A program made the translations under genes and the position numbers. Source: a virus (lineage: Duplodnaviria > Heunggongvirae > Uroviricota > Caudoviricetes). From it: a stretch of 8,160 bases of DNA. This document shows, one piece after another, positions 871 through 7,986 of the stretch (position 1 is the first letter of the stretch; each line of letters opens with the position of its first letter). The notes beneath the pieces are model-generated. The model did not search any database, was not told the origin of the DNA, and saw only the letters and a program-made list of their open reading frames with translations. The stretch is taken from IMG/VR virus record IMGVR_UViG_2693429621_000002, positions 1-8,160 of that record; one strand, 5' to 3'.

Positions 871-1046
871 TGCAGCGGGTGCTTGAGGCTATCTGTCTCA
901 GGCATGAACACCAAAAGGCAGATAGAGAAAAGCCCCAGTTAACATTACGCGTCCGGCAAGACGCTTAACATTAATCTGAGGCTCAATCTATGAACGGCAA
1001 ATCTAGGTTAGCCTCTTACGTGCCGAAAGGCAAGGAGAAGCAGGCT

Positions 1047-1202
1047 ATGAAGCAGCAAAAGGCGATGTTAATCGCCCTGATCGTCATCTGTTTAACCGTC
1101 ATAGTGACGGCACTGGTAACGAGGAAAGACCTCTGCGAGGTACGAATTCGAACCGGCCAGACGGAGGTCGCTGTCTTCACAGCTTACGAACCTGAGGAGT
1201 AA
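1047..1202 (+). CDS. hokD: Hok/Gef-family type I toxin, HokD/RelF-like (51 aa)
   Basis: Translation MKQQKAMLIALIVICLTVIVTALVTRKDLCEVRIRTGQTEVAVFTAYEPEE matches my recollection of E. coli HokD (RelF). The ORF track shows an in-frame 70-aa extension from ATG 990, which may be a mok-like upstream frame or an ORF-finder artefact. Confidence 0.85.
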   Translation: MKQQKAMLIALIVICLTVIVTALVTRKDLCEVRIRTGQTEVAVFTAYEPEE

Positions 1203-2838: not shown

Positions 2839-3219
2839 ATGACCGAGCGCATAGAATTTGTTTTACCTTACCCGCCGACGGTGAACACTTACTGGCGTCG
2901 TCGTGGCAGCACATATTTTGTATCAAAAGCCGGGGAGCGTTATCGCCGGGCAGTGGCGCTTATTGTTCGCCAGCAGCGGCTGAAATTAAGCCTGTCCGGA
3001 AGGTTGGCAATAAAAATTATTGCAGAACCACCGGATAAGCGCCGCCGTGACCTGGACAATATTCTGAAAGCGCCGCTGGATGCGCTGACGCATGCGGGGT
3101 TGCTAATGGACGATGAGCAGTTTGATGAAATCAATATCGTTCGTGGTCAGCCAGTATCTGGTGGACGTCTGGGGGTGAAGATTTACCCCATAATGCATGA
3201 AGAGCAGGTCAAAAAATGA
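2839..3219 (+). CDS. rusA: RusA-family Holliday junction resolvase (126 aa)
   Basis: Conserved RusA blocks LPYPPTVNTYWRRRG, DKRRRDLDNILKAPLDALTHAGL and GGRLGVKI resemble E. coli RusA; SD GGAAAG upstream; stop overlaps the next start (ATGA 3216-3219). Confidence 0.85.
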   Translation: MTERIEFVLPYPPTVNTYWRRRGSTYFVSKAGERYRRAVALIVRQQRLKLSLSGRLAIKIIAEPPDKRRRDLDNILKAPLDALTHAGLLMDDEQFDEINIVRGQPVSGGRLGVKIYPIMHEEQVKK

Positions 3220-4043
3220 AACTGGAAGATTTACCGAAATACTACTCCCCAAAATCCCCCGGCCTGACTGATGCATCGGCCTCAACGTCGAAAGATGCGC
3301 TGAGTATCACTGATGTGATGGCCGCGCAGGGCATGACACAGAATCGGGCTGAGATGGGGGTTTCTGCGTTCCTTGGGAAAATGGGCATTAGTATGAATGA
3401 CAGAGAGCGGGCAACAGAATTGCTGACAGAATATGCACTCAGTCGGTGTGATCGCGTGGCGGCGTTAAGAAAACTCCCGGCAGAAATAAAACCGGCAGTG
3501 ATGCGTATTATGGCTTCGTATGCGTTTGAAGATTATGCCCGTAGCGCGGCGAGCAAAAAACAGTGCCCCTGCTGTCACGGAAAAAAATTTATTGAAAGCG
3601 AGGTTTTTACAAACAAGATCCAGTATCCGGATGGTAAGCCGCCGGTATGGGCAAAGTGTACGAAAGGTGTGTATCCGTCTTACTGGGAAGAATGGAAAAA
3701 AGTCAGGGAGGTGGTAAAAGTTGCCTGTCCGGAGTGTGGCGGAAAGGGTGAGGTTTCCACCGCCTGTAAGGATTGCCGTGGGCGTGGTGTCGCCATTCAT
3801 CGTGAAGAGTCGGTAAAACGTGGTATGCCTGTTATCAGAGACTGCCAGCGTTGTGGTGGTCGTGGCTATGAAAGACTACCATCAACGGAGGCATTTAATG
3901 CTATATGCGAGGTGACAAACCAGATAACACGCGCGTCATGGGAAAAAACAGTTAAGAAATTCTATGATGCGCTGGTGACTCGGTTTGATATTGAAGAAGC
4001 ATGGGCTGAGCGGCAGTTAAAAAAGGTAACTAGGTNAGGTTGA
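3216..4043 (+). CDS. Q-type late antiterminator, QuuQ-like, with zinc-finger motifs (about 274 aa)
   Basis: Repeated CxxC motifs (CPCCHGKKF, CPECGGKG...CKDCRGRG, CQRCGGRG); lies immediately upstream of a promoter plus terminator pair typical of PR'/tR'. The 3' end contains an N at 4036; the duplicate copy shows the true C-terminus ...KKVTR. Confidence 0.7.
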   Translation: MKLEDLPKYYSPKSPGLTDASASTSKDALSITDVMAAQGMTQNRAEMGVSAFLGKMGISMNDRERATELLTEYALSRCDRVAALRKLPAEIKPAVMRIMASYAFEDYARSAASKKQCPCCHGKKFIESEVFTNKIQYPDGKPPVWAKCTKGVYPSYWEEWKKVREVVKVACPECGGKGEVSTACKDCRGRGVAIHREESVKRGMPVIRDCQRCGGRGYERLPSTEAFNAICEVTNQITRASWEKTVKKFYDALVTRFDIEEAWAERQLKKVTRXG

Positions 4044-4128
4044 TTTTTCCGGAATCTGTGGTAAATTCGTCATAACTATGGGCGTTTTATGCCTGACGTT
4101 AGAAGAGTTTCTACAACCCGCCGCCGAG
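3629..4128. repeat. copy 1 of duplicated segment (Q 3' end, PR'-like promoter, start of tR' hairpin) ending at the scaffold gap
   Basis: Matches 4150-4651 except for three substitutions (3962 C/T, 3980 T/C, 4076 T/G) and a small indel around the N at 4036. A copy of the promoter sits at about 4040-4067. Confidence 0.9.
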
Positions 4129-4149
4129 NNNNNNNNNNNNNNNNNNNNN
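4129..4149. other. scaffold gap (21 N)
   Basis: Run of N characters read directly. Confidence 0.97.
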
Positions 4150-4558
4150 GGATGGTAAGCCGCCGGTATGGGCAAAGTGTACGAAAGGTGTGTATCCGTC
4201 TTACTGGGAAGAATGGAAAAAAGTCAGGGAGGTGGTAAAAGTTGCCTGTCCGGAGTGTGGCGGAAAGGGTGAGGTTTCCACCGCCTGTAAGGATTGCCGT
4301 GGGCGTGGTGTCGCCATTCATCGTGAAGAGTCGGTAAAACGTGGTATGCCTGTTATCAGAGACTGCCAGCGTTGTGGTGGTCGTGGCTATGAAAGACTAC
4401 CATCAACGGAGGCATTTAATGCTATATGCGAGGTGACAAACCAGATAACACGCGCGTCATGGGAAAAAACAGTTAAGAAATTTTATGATGCGCTGGTGAC
4501 CCGGTTTGATATTGAAGAAGCATGGGCTGAGCGGCAGTTAAAAAAGGTAACTAGGTAA
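4150..4558 (+). pseudogene. duplicated 3' portion of the Q antiterminator ORF (partial, begins at gap edge); probably contig overlap rather than a separate gene
   Basis: In-frame continuation of Q codons ending ...QLKKVTR-TAA at 4556-4558. The ORF track reports only the part from the internal ATG at 4190. Confidence 0.6.
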
Positions 4559-4563
4559 CAAGG

Positions 4564-4591
4564 TTGATTTTTCCGGAATCTGTGGTAAATT
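4564..4591 (+). promoter_or_regulatory. PR'-like late promoter (-35 TTGATT, 16-bp spacer, -10 TAAATT), presumed Q-utilisation region
   Basis: Hexamers read directly, immediately 3' of the Q gene, with a terminator about 60 nt downstream; this is the lambdoid PR'/qut/tR' arrangement. Confidence 0.55.
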
Positions 4592-4638
4592 CGTCATAAC
4601 GATGGGCGTTTTATGCCTGACGTTAGAAGAGTTTCTAC

Positions 4639-4663
4639 AACCCGCCGCCGAGCGGGTTTTTTA
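4639..4663 (+). terminator. tR'-like rho-independent terminator
   Basis: Hairpin AACCCGC-CGCCGA-GCGGGTT followed by TTTTTTAT. Confidence 0.65.
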
Positions 4664-4782
4664 TGACTGAAATCGCGTCAGTACAGTAAACGCGCTGGTG
4701 GCGGTGAATACCTGTCTTTCAGCTTGCTGGCTTTTTCGACAAGAGTTATTGGTGTGTCACGTTAACCGGAAAAGGAAAAGAC

Positions 4783-4980
4783 ATGCTAAAACAGCAGGAT
4801 ATGACAGAAACCGCCAGAGTGGTGTTTAATGAATTAAGCGTTACCGAACCGGCGACAGTCGGGGAGATAGCGCAGAATACTTACCTTTCACGCGAACGCT
4901 GCCAGTTAATACTGACCCAGCTGGTTATGGCGGGTCTGGCAGACTATCAGTTCGGTTGTTACAGACGCCTTCCGCAGTGA
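4783..4980 (+). CDS. small putative winged-helix/HTH DNA-binding protein (65 aa)
   Basis: SD AAAGGAAAAG 6 nt before ATG; the segment PATVGEIAQNTYLSRERCQLILTQLVMAGLA looks like a helix-turn-helix. An alternative start is ATG 4801. Confidence 0.5.
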   Translation: MLKQQDMTETARVVFNELSVTEPATVGEIAQNTYLSRERCQLILTQLVMAGLADYQFGCYRRLPQ

Positions 4981-4994
4981 AGGCTTTTTTATTT
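4967..4994 (+). terminator. rho-independent terminator overlapping the stop codon of the 4783-4980 ORF
   Basis: Hairpin GCCTTC-CGCAGT-GAAGGC followed by TTTTTTATTT. Confidence 0.5.
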
Positions 4995-5130: not shown

Positions 5131-6189
5131 ATGCTTAATACTGTAAAAATATCCAGTTGTGAGTTAATCAACGCCGACTGCCTGGAATTTATCCGGTCGT
5201 TACCCGAAAATTCTGTTGACCTGATAGTCACGGACCCGCCGTACTTTAAAGTGAAGCCTGAGGGCTGGGATAACCAGTGGAAGGGCGACGATGATTACCT
5301 GAAGTGGCTGGACCAGTGTCTGGCGCAGTTCTGGCGGGTGCTGAAACCTGCCGGAAGTCTTTACCTGTTCTGTGGTCATCGCCTGGCATCTGATATCGAA
5401 ATCATGATGCGTGAACGCTTCAGTGTGCTGAACCATATTATCTGGGCGAAGCCGTCCGGACGCTGGAACGGATGCAACAAGGAAAGCCTGCGGGCGTATT
5501 TCCCCGCCACAGAGCGCATTCTGTTCGCGGAACATTATCAGGGGCCGTATCGTCCGAAAGATGCCGGGTATGCGGCGAAGGGCAGTGCACTGAAACAGCA
5601 TGTGATGGCCCCGCTGATTTCTTACTTTCGTGATGCGCGAGCTGCCCTGGGGATAACGGCAAAACAGATTGCAGATGCCACAGGAAAGAAAAACATGGTG
5701 TCGCACTGGTTCAGTGCCGGTCAGTGGCAGTTGCCGAATGAAAGCGATTATCTGAAATTACAGGCGCTGTTTGCCCGGGTGGCAGAAGAGAAGCATCGGC
5801 GTGGTGAACTGGAAAAGCTCCACCACCAGCTGGTGGATACGTATACCTCACTGAACCGGCAGTATGCGGAGCTGCTGAGTGAATATAAACATCTGCGGCG
5901 GTATTTTGGCGTGACGGTGCAGGTGCCGTATACCGATGTGTGGACGCATAAACCGGTGCAGTTCTATCCCGGGAAACATCCGTGCGAAAAACCGGCAGAA
6001 ATGCTGCAGCAGATAATCAGCGCTAGCAGTCGTCCGGGTGACCTGATTGCAGATTTTTTCATGGGGTTGGGTTCGACAGTGAAAGCGGCACTGGCGCTCG
6101 GGCGTCGTGCAATTGGCGTTGAGCTGGAGACTGAACGTTTTGAGCAGACGGTTCGGGAAGTACAGGATTTAGTCAGCCAGAACGGATGA
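5131..6189 (+). CDS. beta-class DNA amino-methyltransferase, probably N6-adenine, orphan (352 aa)
   Basis: N-terminal motif IV LIVTDPPYF and C-terminal motif I DFFMGLGST. This order (IV before I) is the beta-class arrangement, and DPPY favours N6-adenine. No restriction endonuclease ORF is adjacent. Confidence 0.85.
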   Translation: MLNTVKISSCELINADCLEFIRSLPENSVDLIVTDPPYFKVKPEGWDNQWKGDDDYLKWLDQCLAQFWRVLKPAGSLYLFCGHRLASDIEIMMRERFSVLNHIIWAKPSGRWNGCNKESLRAYFPATERILFAEHYQGPYRPKDAGYAAKGSALKQHVMAPLISYFRDARAALGITAKQIADATGKKNMVSHWFSAGQWQLPNESDYLKLQALFARVAEEKHRRGELEKLHHQLVDTYTSLNRQYAELLSEYKHLRRYFGVTVQVPYTDVWTHKPVQFYPGKHPCEKPAEMLQQIISASSRPGDLIADFFMGLGSTVKAALALGRRAIGVELETERFEQTVREVQDLVSQNG

Positions 6190-6229: not shown

Positions 6230-6305
6230 GGCCCTTTAGCTCAGTGGTGAGAGCGAGCGACTCATAATCGCCAGGTCGCTGGTTCAAATCCAGCAAGGGC
6301 CACCA
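6230..6305 (+). tRNA. ileZ: tRNA-Ile2 (anticodon CAU, lysidine type; ileX/ileZ-like), 76 nt with encoded CCA
   Basis: Manual cloverleaf: acceptor GGCCCTT/AAGGGCC, D-arm GCTC-AGTGGTGA-GAGC, anticodon loop CTCATAA, T-loop TTCAAAT. Closely resembles my recollection of E. coli ileX. Confidence 0.85.
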
Positions 6306-6312
6306 TCACATA

Positions 6313-6389
6313 CCGCCATTAGCTCATCAGGAAAGAGCGCCAGCCTTCGAAGCTGGCTGCGCGGGGTTCAAGTCCCCGATGGCGGTCCA
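6313..6389 (+). tRNA. argN: tRNA-Arg (anticodon UCG), 77 nt with encoded CCA
   Basis: Acceptor CCGCCAT/ATGGCGG, anticodon stem CCAGC/GCTGG, loop CTTCGAA, T-arm CGGGG-TTCAAGT-CCCCG, discriminator T, CCA. Confidence 0.8.
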
Positions 6390-6402
6390 TTATCTGCATC
6401 AT

Positions 6403-6479
6403 GCGTTGTTAGCTCAGCCGGACAGAGCAATTGCCTTCTAAGCAATCGGTCACTGGTTCGAATCCAGTACAGCGCGCCA
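6403..6479 (+). tRNA. argO: tRNA-Arg (anticodon UCU), 77 nt with encoded CCA
   Basis: Acceptor GCGTTGT/ACAGCGC (one G-U pair), anticodon stem ATTGC/GCAAT, loop CTTCTAA, T-loop TTCGAAT, discriminator G, CCA. Confidence 0.85.
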
Positions 6480-6616
6480 TATTCATTCTTCCAGATTCCT
6501 TCCGGCAGAGCCTTATACTGAAATATACCTGGCTCAGGATATTGTTGAAAATATTTTATGTTTGTCAAAAATAAAAGTTCTGTTAAGTATTGATTGAGTG
6601 TTTGTTATACGGTCTA

Positions 6617-6943
6617 ATGGTTTTTTCAGCATTAAATATTTATCATTCATATGGTGTGGGTAGAGTGAATATTGATGAGGCGTCGGGGTGTTTCATCCTT
6701 AGGCAGCGTATTGATATAGTCAATGCAGCACGAGCAAAGGCCTTCAGCCGTTTGACAGTTTTGTTCTGTACTCCTGATCGTCTTTCGGGAAGAGACGTTA
6801 TTATTCTGAATAGTGATGCTATACAGAGGGTTTGCGATGAGTTCATGGTTGCTAATTCAGAATTATTTGCTCTTGTTCAGGAGTACAACAGAATAGCCAG
6901 GACCTGTGGTATGGATGAACTTCGGATTACTCATCTGGGGTAG
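6617..6943 (+). CDS. hypothetical cargo protein (108 aa from first ATG; ORF track extends to TTG at 6590)
   Basis: Open frame of more than 100 codons in an AT-rich region; no clear SD. Arg codons are 6/11 AGA/AGG plus one CGA, and Ile includes 3 ATA, matching the adjacent tRNAs. No recognisable domain. Confidence 0.4.
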   Translation: MVFSALNIYHSYGVGRVNIDEASGCFILRQRIDIVNAARAKAFSRLTVLFCTPDRLSGRDVIILNSDAIQRVCDEFMVANSELFALVQEYNRIARTCGMDELRITHLG

Positions 6944-7023
6944 ATACATATCTGGATTATCACCTGTTACGGTAAAAAGTGATTGCTTACTGTTTTTGTG
7001 AATGGCATTGCAGCAGCCGGATA

Positions 7024-7110
7024 ATGTCAGTGCTGGCTGACGGTGTGCTGGTGGCGGGTGTGGTGGTTGTTGCTTTCCCGTTGCTGAAAAAGAAAACGCC
7101 AGACTGTTAG
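7024..7110 (+). CDS. possible 28-aa hydrophobic micro-protein (MSVLADGVLVAGVVVVAFPLLKKKTPDC)
   Basis: ATG with weak SD (GGA); one hydrophobic helix followed by KKK. Speculative; may be non-coding. Confidence 0.2.
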   Translation: MSVLADGVLVAGVVVVAFPLLKKKTPDC

Positions 7111-7335
7111 CCGGGTATCAGTTAGCGGGAGAAATTTTTAAATACTTCACAATTCAGGCGGTTGACTGTTGTCTGGTTTGCGGGGAGTTTGTTAAAAGAA
7201 ACTGGCATGGTGAATCCCCCTGTGCGGAGGGGCAATCAGCGAGTAGGTATATGGGATAATCGCGGATTCAGGTGCTGGTACTGAATTCACCGGGAGGCAC
7301 CCGGCACCATGCAATGGCACATAGCGCCACTCTCC

Positions 7336-7370
7336 AGCCCCTCTCCGGAGGGGCTGTTTATATTGATTTT
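7336..7370 (+). terminator. strong rho-independent terminator, + orientation
   Basis: Perfect 8-bp stem AGCCCCTC-tccg-GAGGGGCT followed by GTTTATATTGATTTT. Confidence 0.6.
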
Positions 7371-7387: not shown

Positions 7388-7421
7388 TCCTTATGGACTT
7401 TGTTGTTTTAGTCCATAAGGA
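7388..7421. promoter_or_regulatory. perfect 12-bp inverted repeat (TCCTTATGGACT-ttgttgtttt-AGTCCATAAGGA) overlapping the stop codon of the minus-strand ORF
   Basis: Read directly; on the minus-strand mRNA the last 10 codons and the stop lie inside this hairpin. Confidence 0.4.
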
Positions 7422-7726
7422 CATATTTGCAGAGTGCAACGGTTATTAAAGCATTCATTCAATACGTTATCTGTATTTGTAGGGCATTCCTGGCTATTTT
7501 TGATTGAATTCCAGAATGTTTTATTGAATGGTACTACGTTGTAAATGGTTACAGGTAGCACTTTGTTATTGAGCATGATGCCTGTGTGAGTCAGTGTAAA
7601 TATACTTTCAGGAGGTAAGAAAGCATCCGATTGATACCAGATTATTAATTTTATTTTACTCCATATGACTGAAAAAGATATTCCGCATGATGGCTGGATA
7701 ACTGTATCAATCACAATCCACTTCAT
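7391..7726 (-). CDS. hypothetical cargo protein (111 aa), antisense to the phage late operon, Cys-containing C-terminus
   Basis: ATG at 7726 with SD AAGGA 7 nt upstream; 6 of 13 Ile codons are the rare ATA (read by the adjacent tRNA-Ile2). C-terminal [25 protein letters not shown] has four Cys. No recognisable domain. Confidence 0.6.
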
Positions 7727-7986
7727 TTAGTTTCCTTGTTTATGCCTTGCTGGTGATGTTCTGAAAAGTATAAATGATATTTTTGAATGTAAACCATAGA
7801 GCAGAATTATTTTTCTGATGTTGTTTATTGTTTATTTAAATGCAGGGTGGTTTATATCTCGTCTTGTAGTTTATCCATGCATATCTGCTTGATAATCAGG
7901 TTTTTATTTAAGGTATGGTTTTGTGTTTTTTCTGTATTACATGTCAGGTATTTTAAAGAATTATTTTTCAGATGGTGGAAAGAACC

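Follow-up and report, generated by a model that had tools for sequence, protein, structure and literature searches.

A probable 92-codon gene, uncalled in the stx slot of an Escherichia coli lambdoid prophage, with codon usage that follows its base composition

Introduction

Does the open frame that follows three tRNA genes in this E. coli lambdoid prophage encode a protein, where would that protein begin, and are its codons matched to the tRNAs beside it? A first-pass annotation of the window (the whole stretch of DNA analysed here, 8,160 nt) had proposed a plus-strand cargo gene whose Arg and Ile codons are those read by the adjacent phage tRNAs. Our preferred reading, to which we give a probability of roughly three in four, is that the locus holds a late-region, moron-like gene of 92 aa that has gone uncalled in the slot occupied by stx in Stx phages, and that its codon usage is compositional.

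The late region and the stx slot

The window covers the region of late regulation in a lambdoid prophage of E. coli. Its features are as follows, in window order.

First in the window: hok/sok module
1780-2838: DUF968 gene
2839-3219: RusA
3216-4043: antiterminator Q, followed by a run of N and a second copy of the Q 3' end
4564-4591, plus strand: putative late promoter pR' (TTGATT-16 nt-TAAATT, read by eye; not listed by the promoter scan)
4639-4658, plus strand: hairpin followed by a T run, putative terminator tR' (from the terminator scan; element span 4564-4665)
4783-4980: 65-aa ORF (orf65 in Stx2a phages)
5131-6189: DNA methyltransferase
6230-6479: three tRNA genes, namely
6230-6305, plus strand: tRNA with anticodon CAT, ileZ type (tRNA-Ile2; ARAGORN, Rfam 72.5 bits)
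6313-6389, plus strand: tRNA-Arg with anticodon TCG, argN type (ARAGORN, Rfam)
6403-6479, plus strand: tRNA-Arg with anticodon TCT, argO type (ARAGORN, Rfam)
6590-6943, plus strand: ORF under study, as given in the ORF list (TTG start, 117 aa)
6979-7110, plus strand: DUF3927 ORF (43 aa; Pfam DUF3927, E=1.7e-27)
7176-7365: STnc100-family sRNA
7391-7726, minus strand: IraM, recognised by NCBIfam
Last in the window: DUF1737 (NanS-p-type) gene, 5' portion only

The ORF exists as first described, and the three tRNA genes do lie upstream of it, at 111-360 nt from position 6590 (150-400 in the first-pass annotation). Between positions 4540 and 6494 the window is 94% identical to many Stx2a-converting phages, in which the gene order is orf65, methylase, ileZ, argN, argO, stx2A, stx2B. 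This homology stops 15 nt past argO, just 5' of the stx2A start of those phages, which places the ORF in the stx slot of a non-Stx relative. The tRNA island has the composition found in Stx phages, with CAU, UCG and UCU tRNAs in the late operon, after Q and a methylase. In the records of Stx2 phages, the three genes are called ileZ, argN and argO; the CAT tRNA is called tRNA-Ile by PGAP in homologous loci and ileZ in Stx2a_1447. The ileZ-type tRNA-Ile2 reads AUA after lysidine modification.

The base composition of the slot is distinct from that of the neighbouring phage genes: the GC content of the ORF is 0.41-0.44, against 0.51-0.53 in the methyltransferase, RusA and DUF968 genes. A sliding profile falls from ~0.54 to ~0.40 across the ORF module, a drop that marks the module as a discrete mosaic unit. 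In the three close relatives whose flank has been replaced, homology with the window ends directly outside 6590-6943, and at one locus with a replaced left flank it is lost directly 5' of 6590. What fills the slot also differs between related phages, which carry stx2AB in the case of Stx2a phages and tciAB directly after the tRNAs in JLK-2012. The ORF belongs to the accessory, moron-like genes in the late region of a lambdoid prophage that resembles Stx phages. It shares with stx2AB the slot, the orientation, the low GC content and an abundance of AGA, AGG and ATA codons, but its product has no sequence or fold relation to the toxin, being a predicted 92-aa helical hairpin and not an AB5 toxin.

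As for the neighbouring STnc100-family sRNA, it is accounted for by the Pas-sRNA preprint, whereas the ORF is not.

A frame of 92 codons conserved across lineages

The first-pass annotation held that an open frame of more than 100 codons is unlikely by chance in AT-rich sequence. This agrees with the ORF as listed, since in 5,000 mononucleotide shuffles of 6480-7175 (696 nt), a start-to-stop ORF of at least 117 codons arose in 0.9%. It does not extend to the part of the frame that proved to be conserved: an ORF of at least 92 codons arose in 7% of the same 5,000 shuffles, and length is to be read, at either threshold, as suggestive. The case for a gene was therefore taken from comparison of homologous prophages, which delimits the following feature.

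6665-6943, plus strand: conserved coding sequence (GTG start, 92 codons, TAG stop, 279 nt)

Three allele types occur in E. coli (that of the window, that of L003/L005 and that of L006/L017), with a protein identity of 56-63%. All three have exactly 92 codons plus the stop from the same GTGAATATTGATGA, with no indels. Differences between the alleles fall on the three codon positions in the proportion ~24/23/44, and the Nei-Gojobori dN/dS is 0.26-0.27 in the sense frame as against 0.8-1.25 in the +1 and +2 frames. Within the lineage of the window, the core is intact in 83 of 83 close relatives (80 IMG/VR loci together with L001, L002 and L016); the variable sites among them comprise 6 synonymous and 5 non-synonymous ones, over ~63 synonymous and ~213 non-synonymous sites. 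Frameshifted or truncated copies occasionally occur (P0008, P0009, P0013, P0017, P0020 and P0021).

Interruption of the frame in close homologues had been named in advance as the sign of a non-coding region. Instead, the frame is open in all 83 relatives and in the three diverged lineages, from which we conclude that the ORF is a gene. The proposed comparison across prophages, with a dN/dS of ~0.26 and 92 codons kept from lineage to lineage, bears out the central claim of a plus-strand cargo protein gene, one that is moron-like in character. On this comparative evidence, 6665-6943 is very probably a real protein-coding gene.

Could the frame nevertheless have opened by chance in a non-coding, AT-rich spacer between the tRNA island and the cargo, with no protein made from it? 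Such an origin would fit the lack of a PGAP gene in the window-type matches listed, the lack of a Pfam or NCBIfam match, the weak Shine-Dalgarno (SD) sequence and the 7% of shuffles that hold a 92-codon ORF. It would not account for a length kept at 56-63% protein identity with an excess of third-position differences and a dN/dS of 0.26, for the intact core in 83 of 83 close relatives, for a confident structure model, or for relatives of the same length (20-43% identity) in five genera at the same phage position, and we regard it as highly unlikely.

The choice of strand needs separate support. On the antisense strand, one frame has its wobble positions in common with the sense frame, and its dN/dS of 0.22-0.38 is equally low; because dN/dS does not separate the two, the assignment to the plus strand is based on conservation of the open frame, the family alignment and the structure model. 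Were the real gene an antisense ORF at 6846-6643 (minus strand, 67 aa), the plus frame would be its shadow; the two share wobble positions and an equally low dN/dS, and in L017 the antisense frame stays open for 95 aa. Within the core, however, it is interrupted by two stops in the window-type allele and by two in the L003-type allele, for which we rejected it. Its translation has no PHROG match, it runs opposite to the late operon, and the plus frame alone is open in all lineages, so that this arrangement is exceedingly improbable. An sRNA overlapping the ORF was likewise considered and rejected, as a search of 6480-7175 against Rfam gave no match at E<=1.

The gene very probably encoded by the plus strand is widespread. 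DNA of the ORF is present in 1,314 of 5,426 complete E. coli genomes (~24%) with diverged alleles included; the complete E. coli records with the window allele number 1,179 at an identity of at least 99%, and 128 matches have 60-80%. In a collection with one genome per species, the matches are the E. coli representative genome and one MAG labelled as Bacillota. The allele types differ in what precedes them: that of L003/L004/L005 lies downstream of a YdeO/GadX-like AraC gene and that of L006/L017 downstream of a methylase. In RefSeq, PGAP places no gene under the window-type allele in any of the matches listed (36 rows); it does annotate the L006 allele, with a product of 92 aa that starts at the equivalent GTG. 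The strains E2348/69 (EPEC), 55989 (EAEC) and C227-11 (O104:H4) are carriers, and mEp460 also has the gene. What follows is an annotation correction that concerns, with its diverged alleles, about 24% of complete E. coli genomes and a 92-codon gene uncalled by PGAP in the window-type matches listed. The ORF is in itself an ordinary find, if a real one: a real, widespread and uncharacterised small prophage gene with a corrected start.

The start of translation

Three starts had been put forward for the ORF (TTG 6590, ATG 6617 and GTG 6656). None of them is conserved, and the start shared by the allele types is GTG 6665. Two further features accompany it.

6590-6664, plus strand: 5' leader of the gene module, open in the window lineage and not conserved as coding
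6653-6661, plus strand: weak SD-like GGTGTGGGT, upstream of GTG 6665

The first-pass annotation had noticed that a clear SD is missing from its starts, and the anti-SD duplex energies agree with it: -0.4 kcal/mol for 6590, -2.4 for 6617 and +2.6 for 6656. The duplex for GTG 6665, at -4.5 kcal/mol, is the best among the four candidates. At the position of this SD, the L006-type allele has AGGAG (-6.9 kcal/mol), and most of the distant members of the family have SD-like sites at the aligned start.

The leader behaves differently from the core. In L006 and L017, an in-frame stop lies 30 nt 5' of the GTG with no start codon between them. Between L005 and L003, whose cores are 100% identical, there is a 4-nt indel just 5' of the core, and L005 has only 15 open nt there. 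Within the window-type lineage, the density of variable sites is 0.09 in the 75-nt leader and 0.036 in the core, a 2.5-fold difference, and five of six substitutions in the leader would be non-synonymous (sites read by eye against the sequence). We accordingly rejected the N-terminal extension 6590-6664 as coding, given its stops and indels in L005, L006 and L017 and its higher variability. Some GenBank annotations have a 108-aa product. Family relatives of 89-110 aa have starts that align with 6665, and a few of them carry called N-terminal extensions. Taken together, these comparisons make GTG 6665 the probable start by a wide measure.

Initiation at this GTG would give a product that begins Met-Asn-Ile-Asp. 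The string MNIDEASGCFILR is a peptide of the predicted gene product.

Codon usage beside the tRNA genes

The codon counts first reported are exact: seven of the 11 Arg codons of the ORF are AGA, AGG or CGA, and three of its Ile codons are ATA (Arg: CGT 3, CGA 1, CGG 1, AGA 3, AGG 3; Ile: ATT 7, ATC 1, ATA 3). They had been read as a match to the tRNAs encoded next to the ORF. In its full form, this reading proposes a cargo protein of ~108-117 aa that starts at 6590, 6617 or 6656, whose codons are co-adapted to the adjacent tRNAs and whose translation depends on them.

Several observations are in keeping with such an adaptation. Rare Arg codons are more frequent in the ORF than in the other genes of the window (7/11 vs 16/94; Fisher p=0.002), and 76 of the 83 close relatives have both tRNA(CAT) and tRNA-Arg(TCT) directly upstream. 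The extension is open in the window lineage, and a 108-aa product is called in some GenBank annotations. Moreover, stx2A, which sits in the same slot, is itself rich in these codons (rare Arg 10/24, ATA 15/20).

When the base composition of the ORF is taken into account, however, the signal disappears. The observed fraction of rare Arg codons, 0.64, compares with 0.51-0.58 expected from composition. The share of ATA in the ORF (3/11) is no different from that in the rest of the window genes (19/67), and the observed 0.27 lies within the expected 0.22-0.33. Those Arg residues that are conserved among the three alleles are encoded by CGT or CGA, whereas AGA and AGG fall almost entirely on variable positions and are often a single step away from Lys codons. 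Homologues without a tRNA neighbour use the same codons: rare Arg 3/8 and ATA 3/8 in L006, 4/6 and 4/8 in the Morganella locus L107. Conversely, loci beside Thr(UGU), Gly(UCC) and Asn(GUU) tRNAs have no enrichment of ACA, GGA and AAC, and codon use does not covary with the adjacent tRNA across 10 family loci with different tRNAs or none. The longer protein fares no better, as stops or frameshifts affect its extension in L005, L006 and L017, its starts lack SD pairing, and the relatives of 89-110 aa start on 6665 apart from a few called extensions. Since composition predicts the rare codons and homologues with other tRNAs or none use them equally, a specific co-adaptation of codons and tRNAs is unsupported, and we consider a tRNA-dependent cargo protein of this kind improbable. 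The abundance of AGA, AGG, CGA and ATA is the unbiased codon use of AT-rich mobile DNA (41-44% GC).

How, then, is the allele linked to the tRNAs in so many relatives? The argO-type tRNA ends 186-188 nt 5' of the GTG in most relatives with enough upstream sequence, and the tRNA-Arg(TCG) of the window has a counterpart in only one of the 83. The linkage of allele and tRNAs is that of a recently spread block. According to a long-standing proposal, phage tRNAs assist the translation of stx2A and other late-operon cargo. The tRNAs of the window may likewise help to translate the ORF and relieve the decoding load of its rare codons, as a general property of the slot, with the ORF itself not specifically adapted.

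This locus can serve as a negative control, in which base composition alone can yield a match between the rare codons of a cargo gene and the phage tRNAs beside it. Claims of this sort need to be tested against compositional expectation and against homologues that lie beside other tRNAs.

A family of small helical phage proteins

Profile searches place the product in the uncharacterised family PHROG 2873, to which PHROG 4827 is related and whose members come from Enterobacterales. The 92-aa core matches phrog_2873 over its full length (E=5.6e-58), and residues 10-117 of the 117-aa ORF match profile positions 1-108 (E=3.8e-70). Members of PHROG 2873 are similar in size and, with few exceptions, encoded on phage-derived DNA, but its profile of 108 positions takes in the 16-residue extension from ATG 6617, which the comparative data above do not find conserved as coding. 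The match to the sister family PHROG 4827 is weak for the window allele (E=2.2e-5); among 11 diverse relatives, all 11 match phrog_2873 and 10 match phrog_4827, the best at 2.5e-16.

A profile search of 1.84 billion representative proteins gave 22 matches and a broader profile 45, the latter all annotated as 'hypothetical'. The hosts of the broader set are Escherichia, Shigella, Citrobacter, Salmonella, Morganella, Providencia, Serratia and Xenorhabdus. Distant relatives have 20-43% identity and 89-110 aa, in an almost gap-free alignment. Across 17 diverse members, R23 and N75 are invariant, while M1, Y74 and A78 are nearly so, the C-terminal ones within an 'EYN..A' motif.

The product is predicted to be a small soluble protein folded into an antiparallel hairpin of two helices, which span residues 3-35 and 50-81 in the AF2 model (pLDDT 82.5). 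No membrane segment is predicted in the 92 aa, and on our own reading of the sequence they have no recognisable signal peptide.

Other searches were negative within their scope. Neither Pfam (the ORF at E up to 1; 11 relatives at E up to 0.1) nor NCBIfam (the ORF at E up to 1) returned a family, and the PDB gave no sequence match with either the single protein or the family profile. Against PADLOC, the ORF, P0023 and the neighbouring TciA and TciB had no match, and P0036 had a single marginal one (E=0.011). Literature on this protein, on ileZ/argN/argO in connection with rare codons, and on tciA/tciB yielded nothing relevant.

PerC/Pch, IraP and ANR/Aar are small helical regulators of roughly 60-110 aa carried on E. 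coli mobile elements. The ORF product resembles them by analogy, as it is small, predicted to be all-helical and encoded on AT-rich acquired DNA, with regulator genes in the neighbourhood (the AraC gene in one allele, IraM in the window), but it is not a member of these groups by any criterion that we applied. The PerC/Pch and anti-adaptor (IraP/IraM/IraD) families were not returned by the Pfam and NCBIfam scans of the ORF or by the Pfam scan of its relatives; both databases presumably hold models of them, and NCBIfam did recognise IraM here.

Neighbourhoods of the family and the tciAB remnant

In eight lineages, the gene is found after Q and before the holin/endolysin cassette, on the strand of the late operon, sometimes with a methylase and a tRNA island intervening between Q and the gene. 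They are the window, L005, L006/L017, Citrobacter L008, E. coli L022, Salmonella L106, Morganella L107/L108 and Serratia L109/L110.

Sixteen complete E. coli genomes have the order ORF, TciA (TerB-like), TciB (DUF3927) and holin, as do L017 (an E. coli-like contig) and Citrobacter L008. What remains of it directly 3' of the ORF in the window is the DUF3927 ORF listed above.

6979-7110, plus strand: 5'-truncated tciB (DUF3927) remnant

This ORF is identical with TciB of JLK-2012, but only from 'SSRIMSVLADG...' onwards, and lacks the first hydrophobic segment, and DNA homology to tciB-carrying phages begins at ~7011. As judged from these alignments, tciA and the 5' part of tciB are lost in the window. 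The ORF adjoins TciA and TciB in the same late-region slot but is homologous to neither. Most tciAB loci lack this ORF allele, and most of the family members examined lack tciAB. An obligatory ORF-TciA-TciB operon was rejected, all three genes being found together in only 16 genomes.

The truncation raises the prospect that the ORF itself is a decaying remnant, once part of an ORF-tciA-tciB cassette and now a pseudogene after the loss of its partners; the missing tciA, the shortened tciB and the intact three-gene order elsewhere would all be expected of it. A pseudogene is less easily squared with a core intact in 83 of 83 relatives, with only 6 synonymous and 5 non-synonymous variable sites and a lower density of them than in the leader (0.036 vs 0.09 per nt), or with an allele present in ~24% of complete E. 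coli genomes. Many relatives, moreover, occur without tciAB, which argues that the gene is independent of the pair, and decay is in our view very unlikely.

Expression and possible role of the product

In Stx2 phages, late expression of the cargo depends on Q and pR', and the same is presumed for the functional gene that we favour here. The pR'/tR' segment just 3' of Q is 94% identical to that of Stx2a phages, and the pR'-like promoter, the tRNAs, the ORF and the downstream lysis genes are all on the same strand. By analogy, the late transcript antiterminated by Q is presumed to originate at pR' and tR' and to extend across the tRNAs and the ORF. In a scan for a promoter of its own, the one candidate was a 9/12 promoter-like site at 6545-6572. 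For terminators, the scan gave none on the plus strand from the stop of the ORF to 7335; it did list a terminator-like hairpin inside the ORF at 6779-6797, which we treated as chance.

The steps that we envisage are these. Upon induction, the ORF would be transcribed mainly within the late transcript from pR', tRNAs included, and tRNA processing would release the downstream ORF mRNA. Translation would begin at GTG 6665 behind its weak SD. The hairpin protein may then bind a protein partner during lytic growth or lysogenic conversion, or may alter host physiology, with a possible link to the TerB-like TciA and DUF3927 TciB, or to the lysis module, that lie 3' of it in intact relatives; it may act jointly with TciA/TciB where the pair occurs. 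Expression within the late transcript is the likelier part of this scheme, given the analogy with Stx2 phages, and somewhat better than an even prospect; a protein-binding accessory role in the late or lysis phase is put forward tentatively.

Genes in the stx slot are expected to be made in a burst upon prophage induction, which makes their proteins candidate factors in lysogenic conversion or lysis accessories. In the present case, the candidate would be relevant to ETEC, EAEC, EPEC and O104:H4-type strains.

A bolder proposal, which we think doubtful, is that the family is no random cargo but represents a conserved lambdoid accessory late gene across Enterobacterales, fixed between Q (with the tRNA island) and the holin even at 20-40% identity, and that its product is a cytoplasmic coiled-coil hairpin that tunes lysis timing, late expression or host stress through a phage or host partner. 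If this were true, the lambdoid late/lysis module would gain an unrecognised component, located in the stx slot in roughly one of every four complete E. coli genomes, and the copies at fimbrial and type IV pilus loci would be co-opted fragments. Members outside the interval between Q and the lysis genes are found close to a K88-like fimbrial operon (on plasmid-like contigs), close to type IV pilus genes or within tail modules. At the K88-like fimbrial locus, a tRNA-Thr lies 580 nt upstream of the family gene, which suggests a transplanted phage fragment.

Putative late promoter region and a repeated segment

Downstream of the late antiterminator gene Q (3216-4043), three promoter- or terminator-like signals were noted, the first two resembling a pR'-tR' segment (late promoter and terminator):

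within 4564-4665, plus strand: pR'-like promoter, TTGATT-16 nt-TAAATT
4639-4658, plus strand: GC-rich hairpin followed by a T run, about 50 nt past the pR'-like promoter
4967-4984: second terminator-like hairpin, after a 65-aa ORF

The promoter comes from our own reading of the sequence and is absent from the promoter-scan list. Together with the hairpin at 4639-4658, it would yield a short leader RNA of the 6S/StxS type in the absence of antitermination by Q. The region from 3629 to 4652 is repetitive: positions 4150-4449 are an exact copy of 3629-3928, a repeat that by eye reaches approximately 4037/4558, and 4561-4652 copy 4037-4128 with 99% identity. Combined, the two segments give a repeat about 521 nt long that flanks an N-run (4130-4149), with a further single N at 4036, and carries second copies of the Q 3' end and of the pR'-tR' segment. 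This duplication seems to stem from scaffolding or assembly and not to be a biological feature.

tRNA islands downstream of Q

A tRNA island 3' of Q is found in lambdoid prophages of several genera, as seen when the window is compared with loci from Citrobacter (L008), E. coli (L022), Salmonella (L106), Morganella (L108), and Serratia (L109). The anticodons vary by phage (Thr-UGU, Gly-UCC, Asn-GUU, CAU, Arg-UCG, Arg-UCU), and across the compared loci the island is conserved in position and not in content.

The ORF and its neighborhood

Two features bear on the ORF (6665-6943, plus strand; PHROG 2873 family) and its 3' side:

6779-6797, plus strand: terminator-like hairpin CGTCTTTCGGGAAGAGACG, then a T-rich tail, inside the ORF
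6979-7110, plus strand: 5'-truncated tciB, annotated by PGAP as "DUF3927 family protein"

The hairpin falls in the codons of the inter-helix loop of the ORF and probably arose by chance. The DUF3927 product is identical to TciB of phage JLK-2012 only from "SSRIMSVLADG..." onward, lacks the first hydrophobic segment, and has no tciA beside it in the window. It is probably a non-functional remnant, yet it is still called as a gene.

Diverged members of the ORF family occur outside this setting. In E. coli RM10042 (L003, L005), a member lies in a prophage directly 3' of a YdeO/GadX-like AraC regulator, and further diverged members were found on plasmid-like contigs (L018-L020) and at L021. Some have a K88-like fimbrial operon nearby, its PapB-type regulator gene being about 1.2 kb away, and a tRNA-Thr lies 580 nt upstream; others adjoin type IV pilus biogenesis genes. 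These neighbors may hint that the family helps regulate virulence or adhesins; alternatively, they may reflect mosaic mobile DNA only.

Other elements of the window

Two further modules were identified:

7391-7726, minus strand: IraM anti-adaptor gene (NCBIfam, 162 bits; GC 0.35)
877-1202, plus strand: hok/sok-type toxin-antitoxin module

The sRNA STnc100 gave a strong Rfam match at 7176-7365 on the plus strand (132 bits versus a gathering score of 47), ending at a terminator hairpin (7335-7356). A 2026 preprint (10.64898/2026.05.13.724894) links STnc100 to the prophage sRNA PasD, which is located upstream of the sialate esterase gene; the DUF1737 gene starting at 7972 fits this position. On the opposite strand, iraM is flanked by the sRNA and the esterase gene; it is prophage cargo that acts on host physiology by stabilizing RpoS. 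In the hok/sok module, the sok RNA match (877-1052, 112 bits) overlaps a 70-aa Mok/Hok-like ORF (990-1202), and a sub-threshold isrK-like match follows at 1211-1292.
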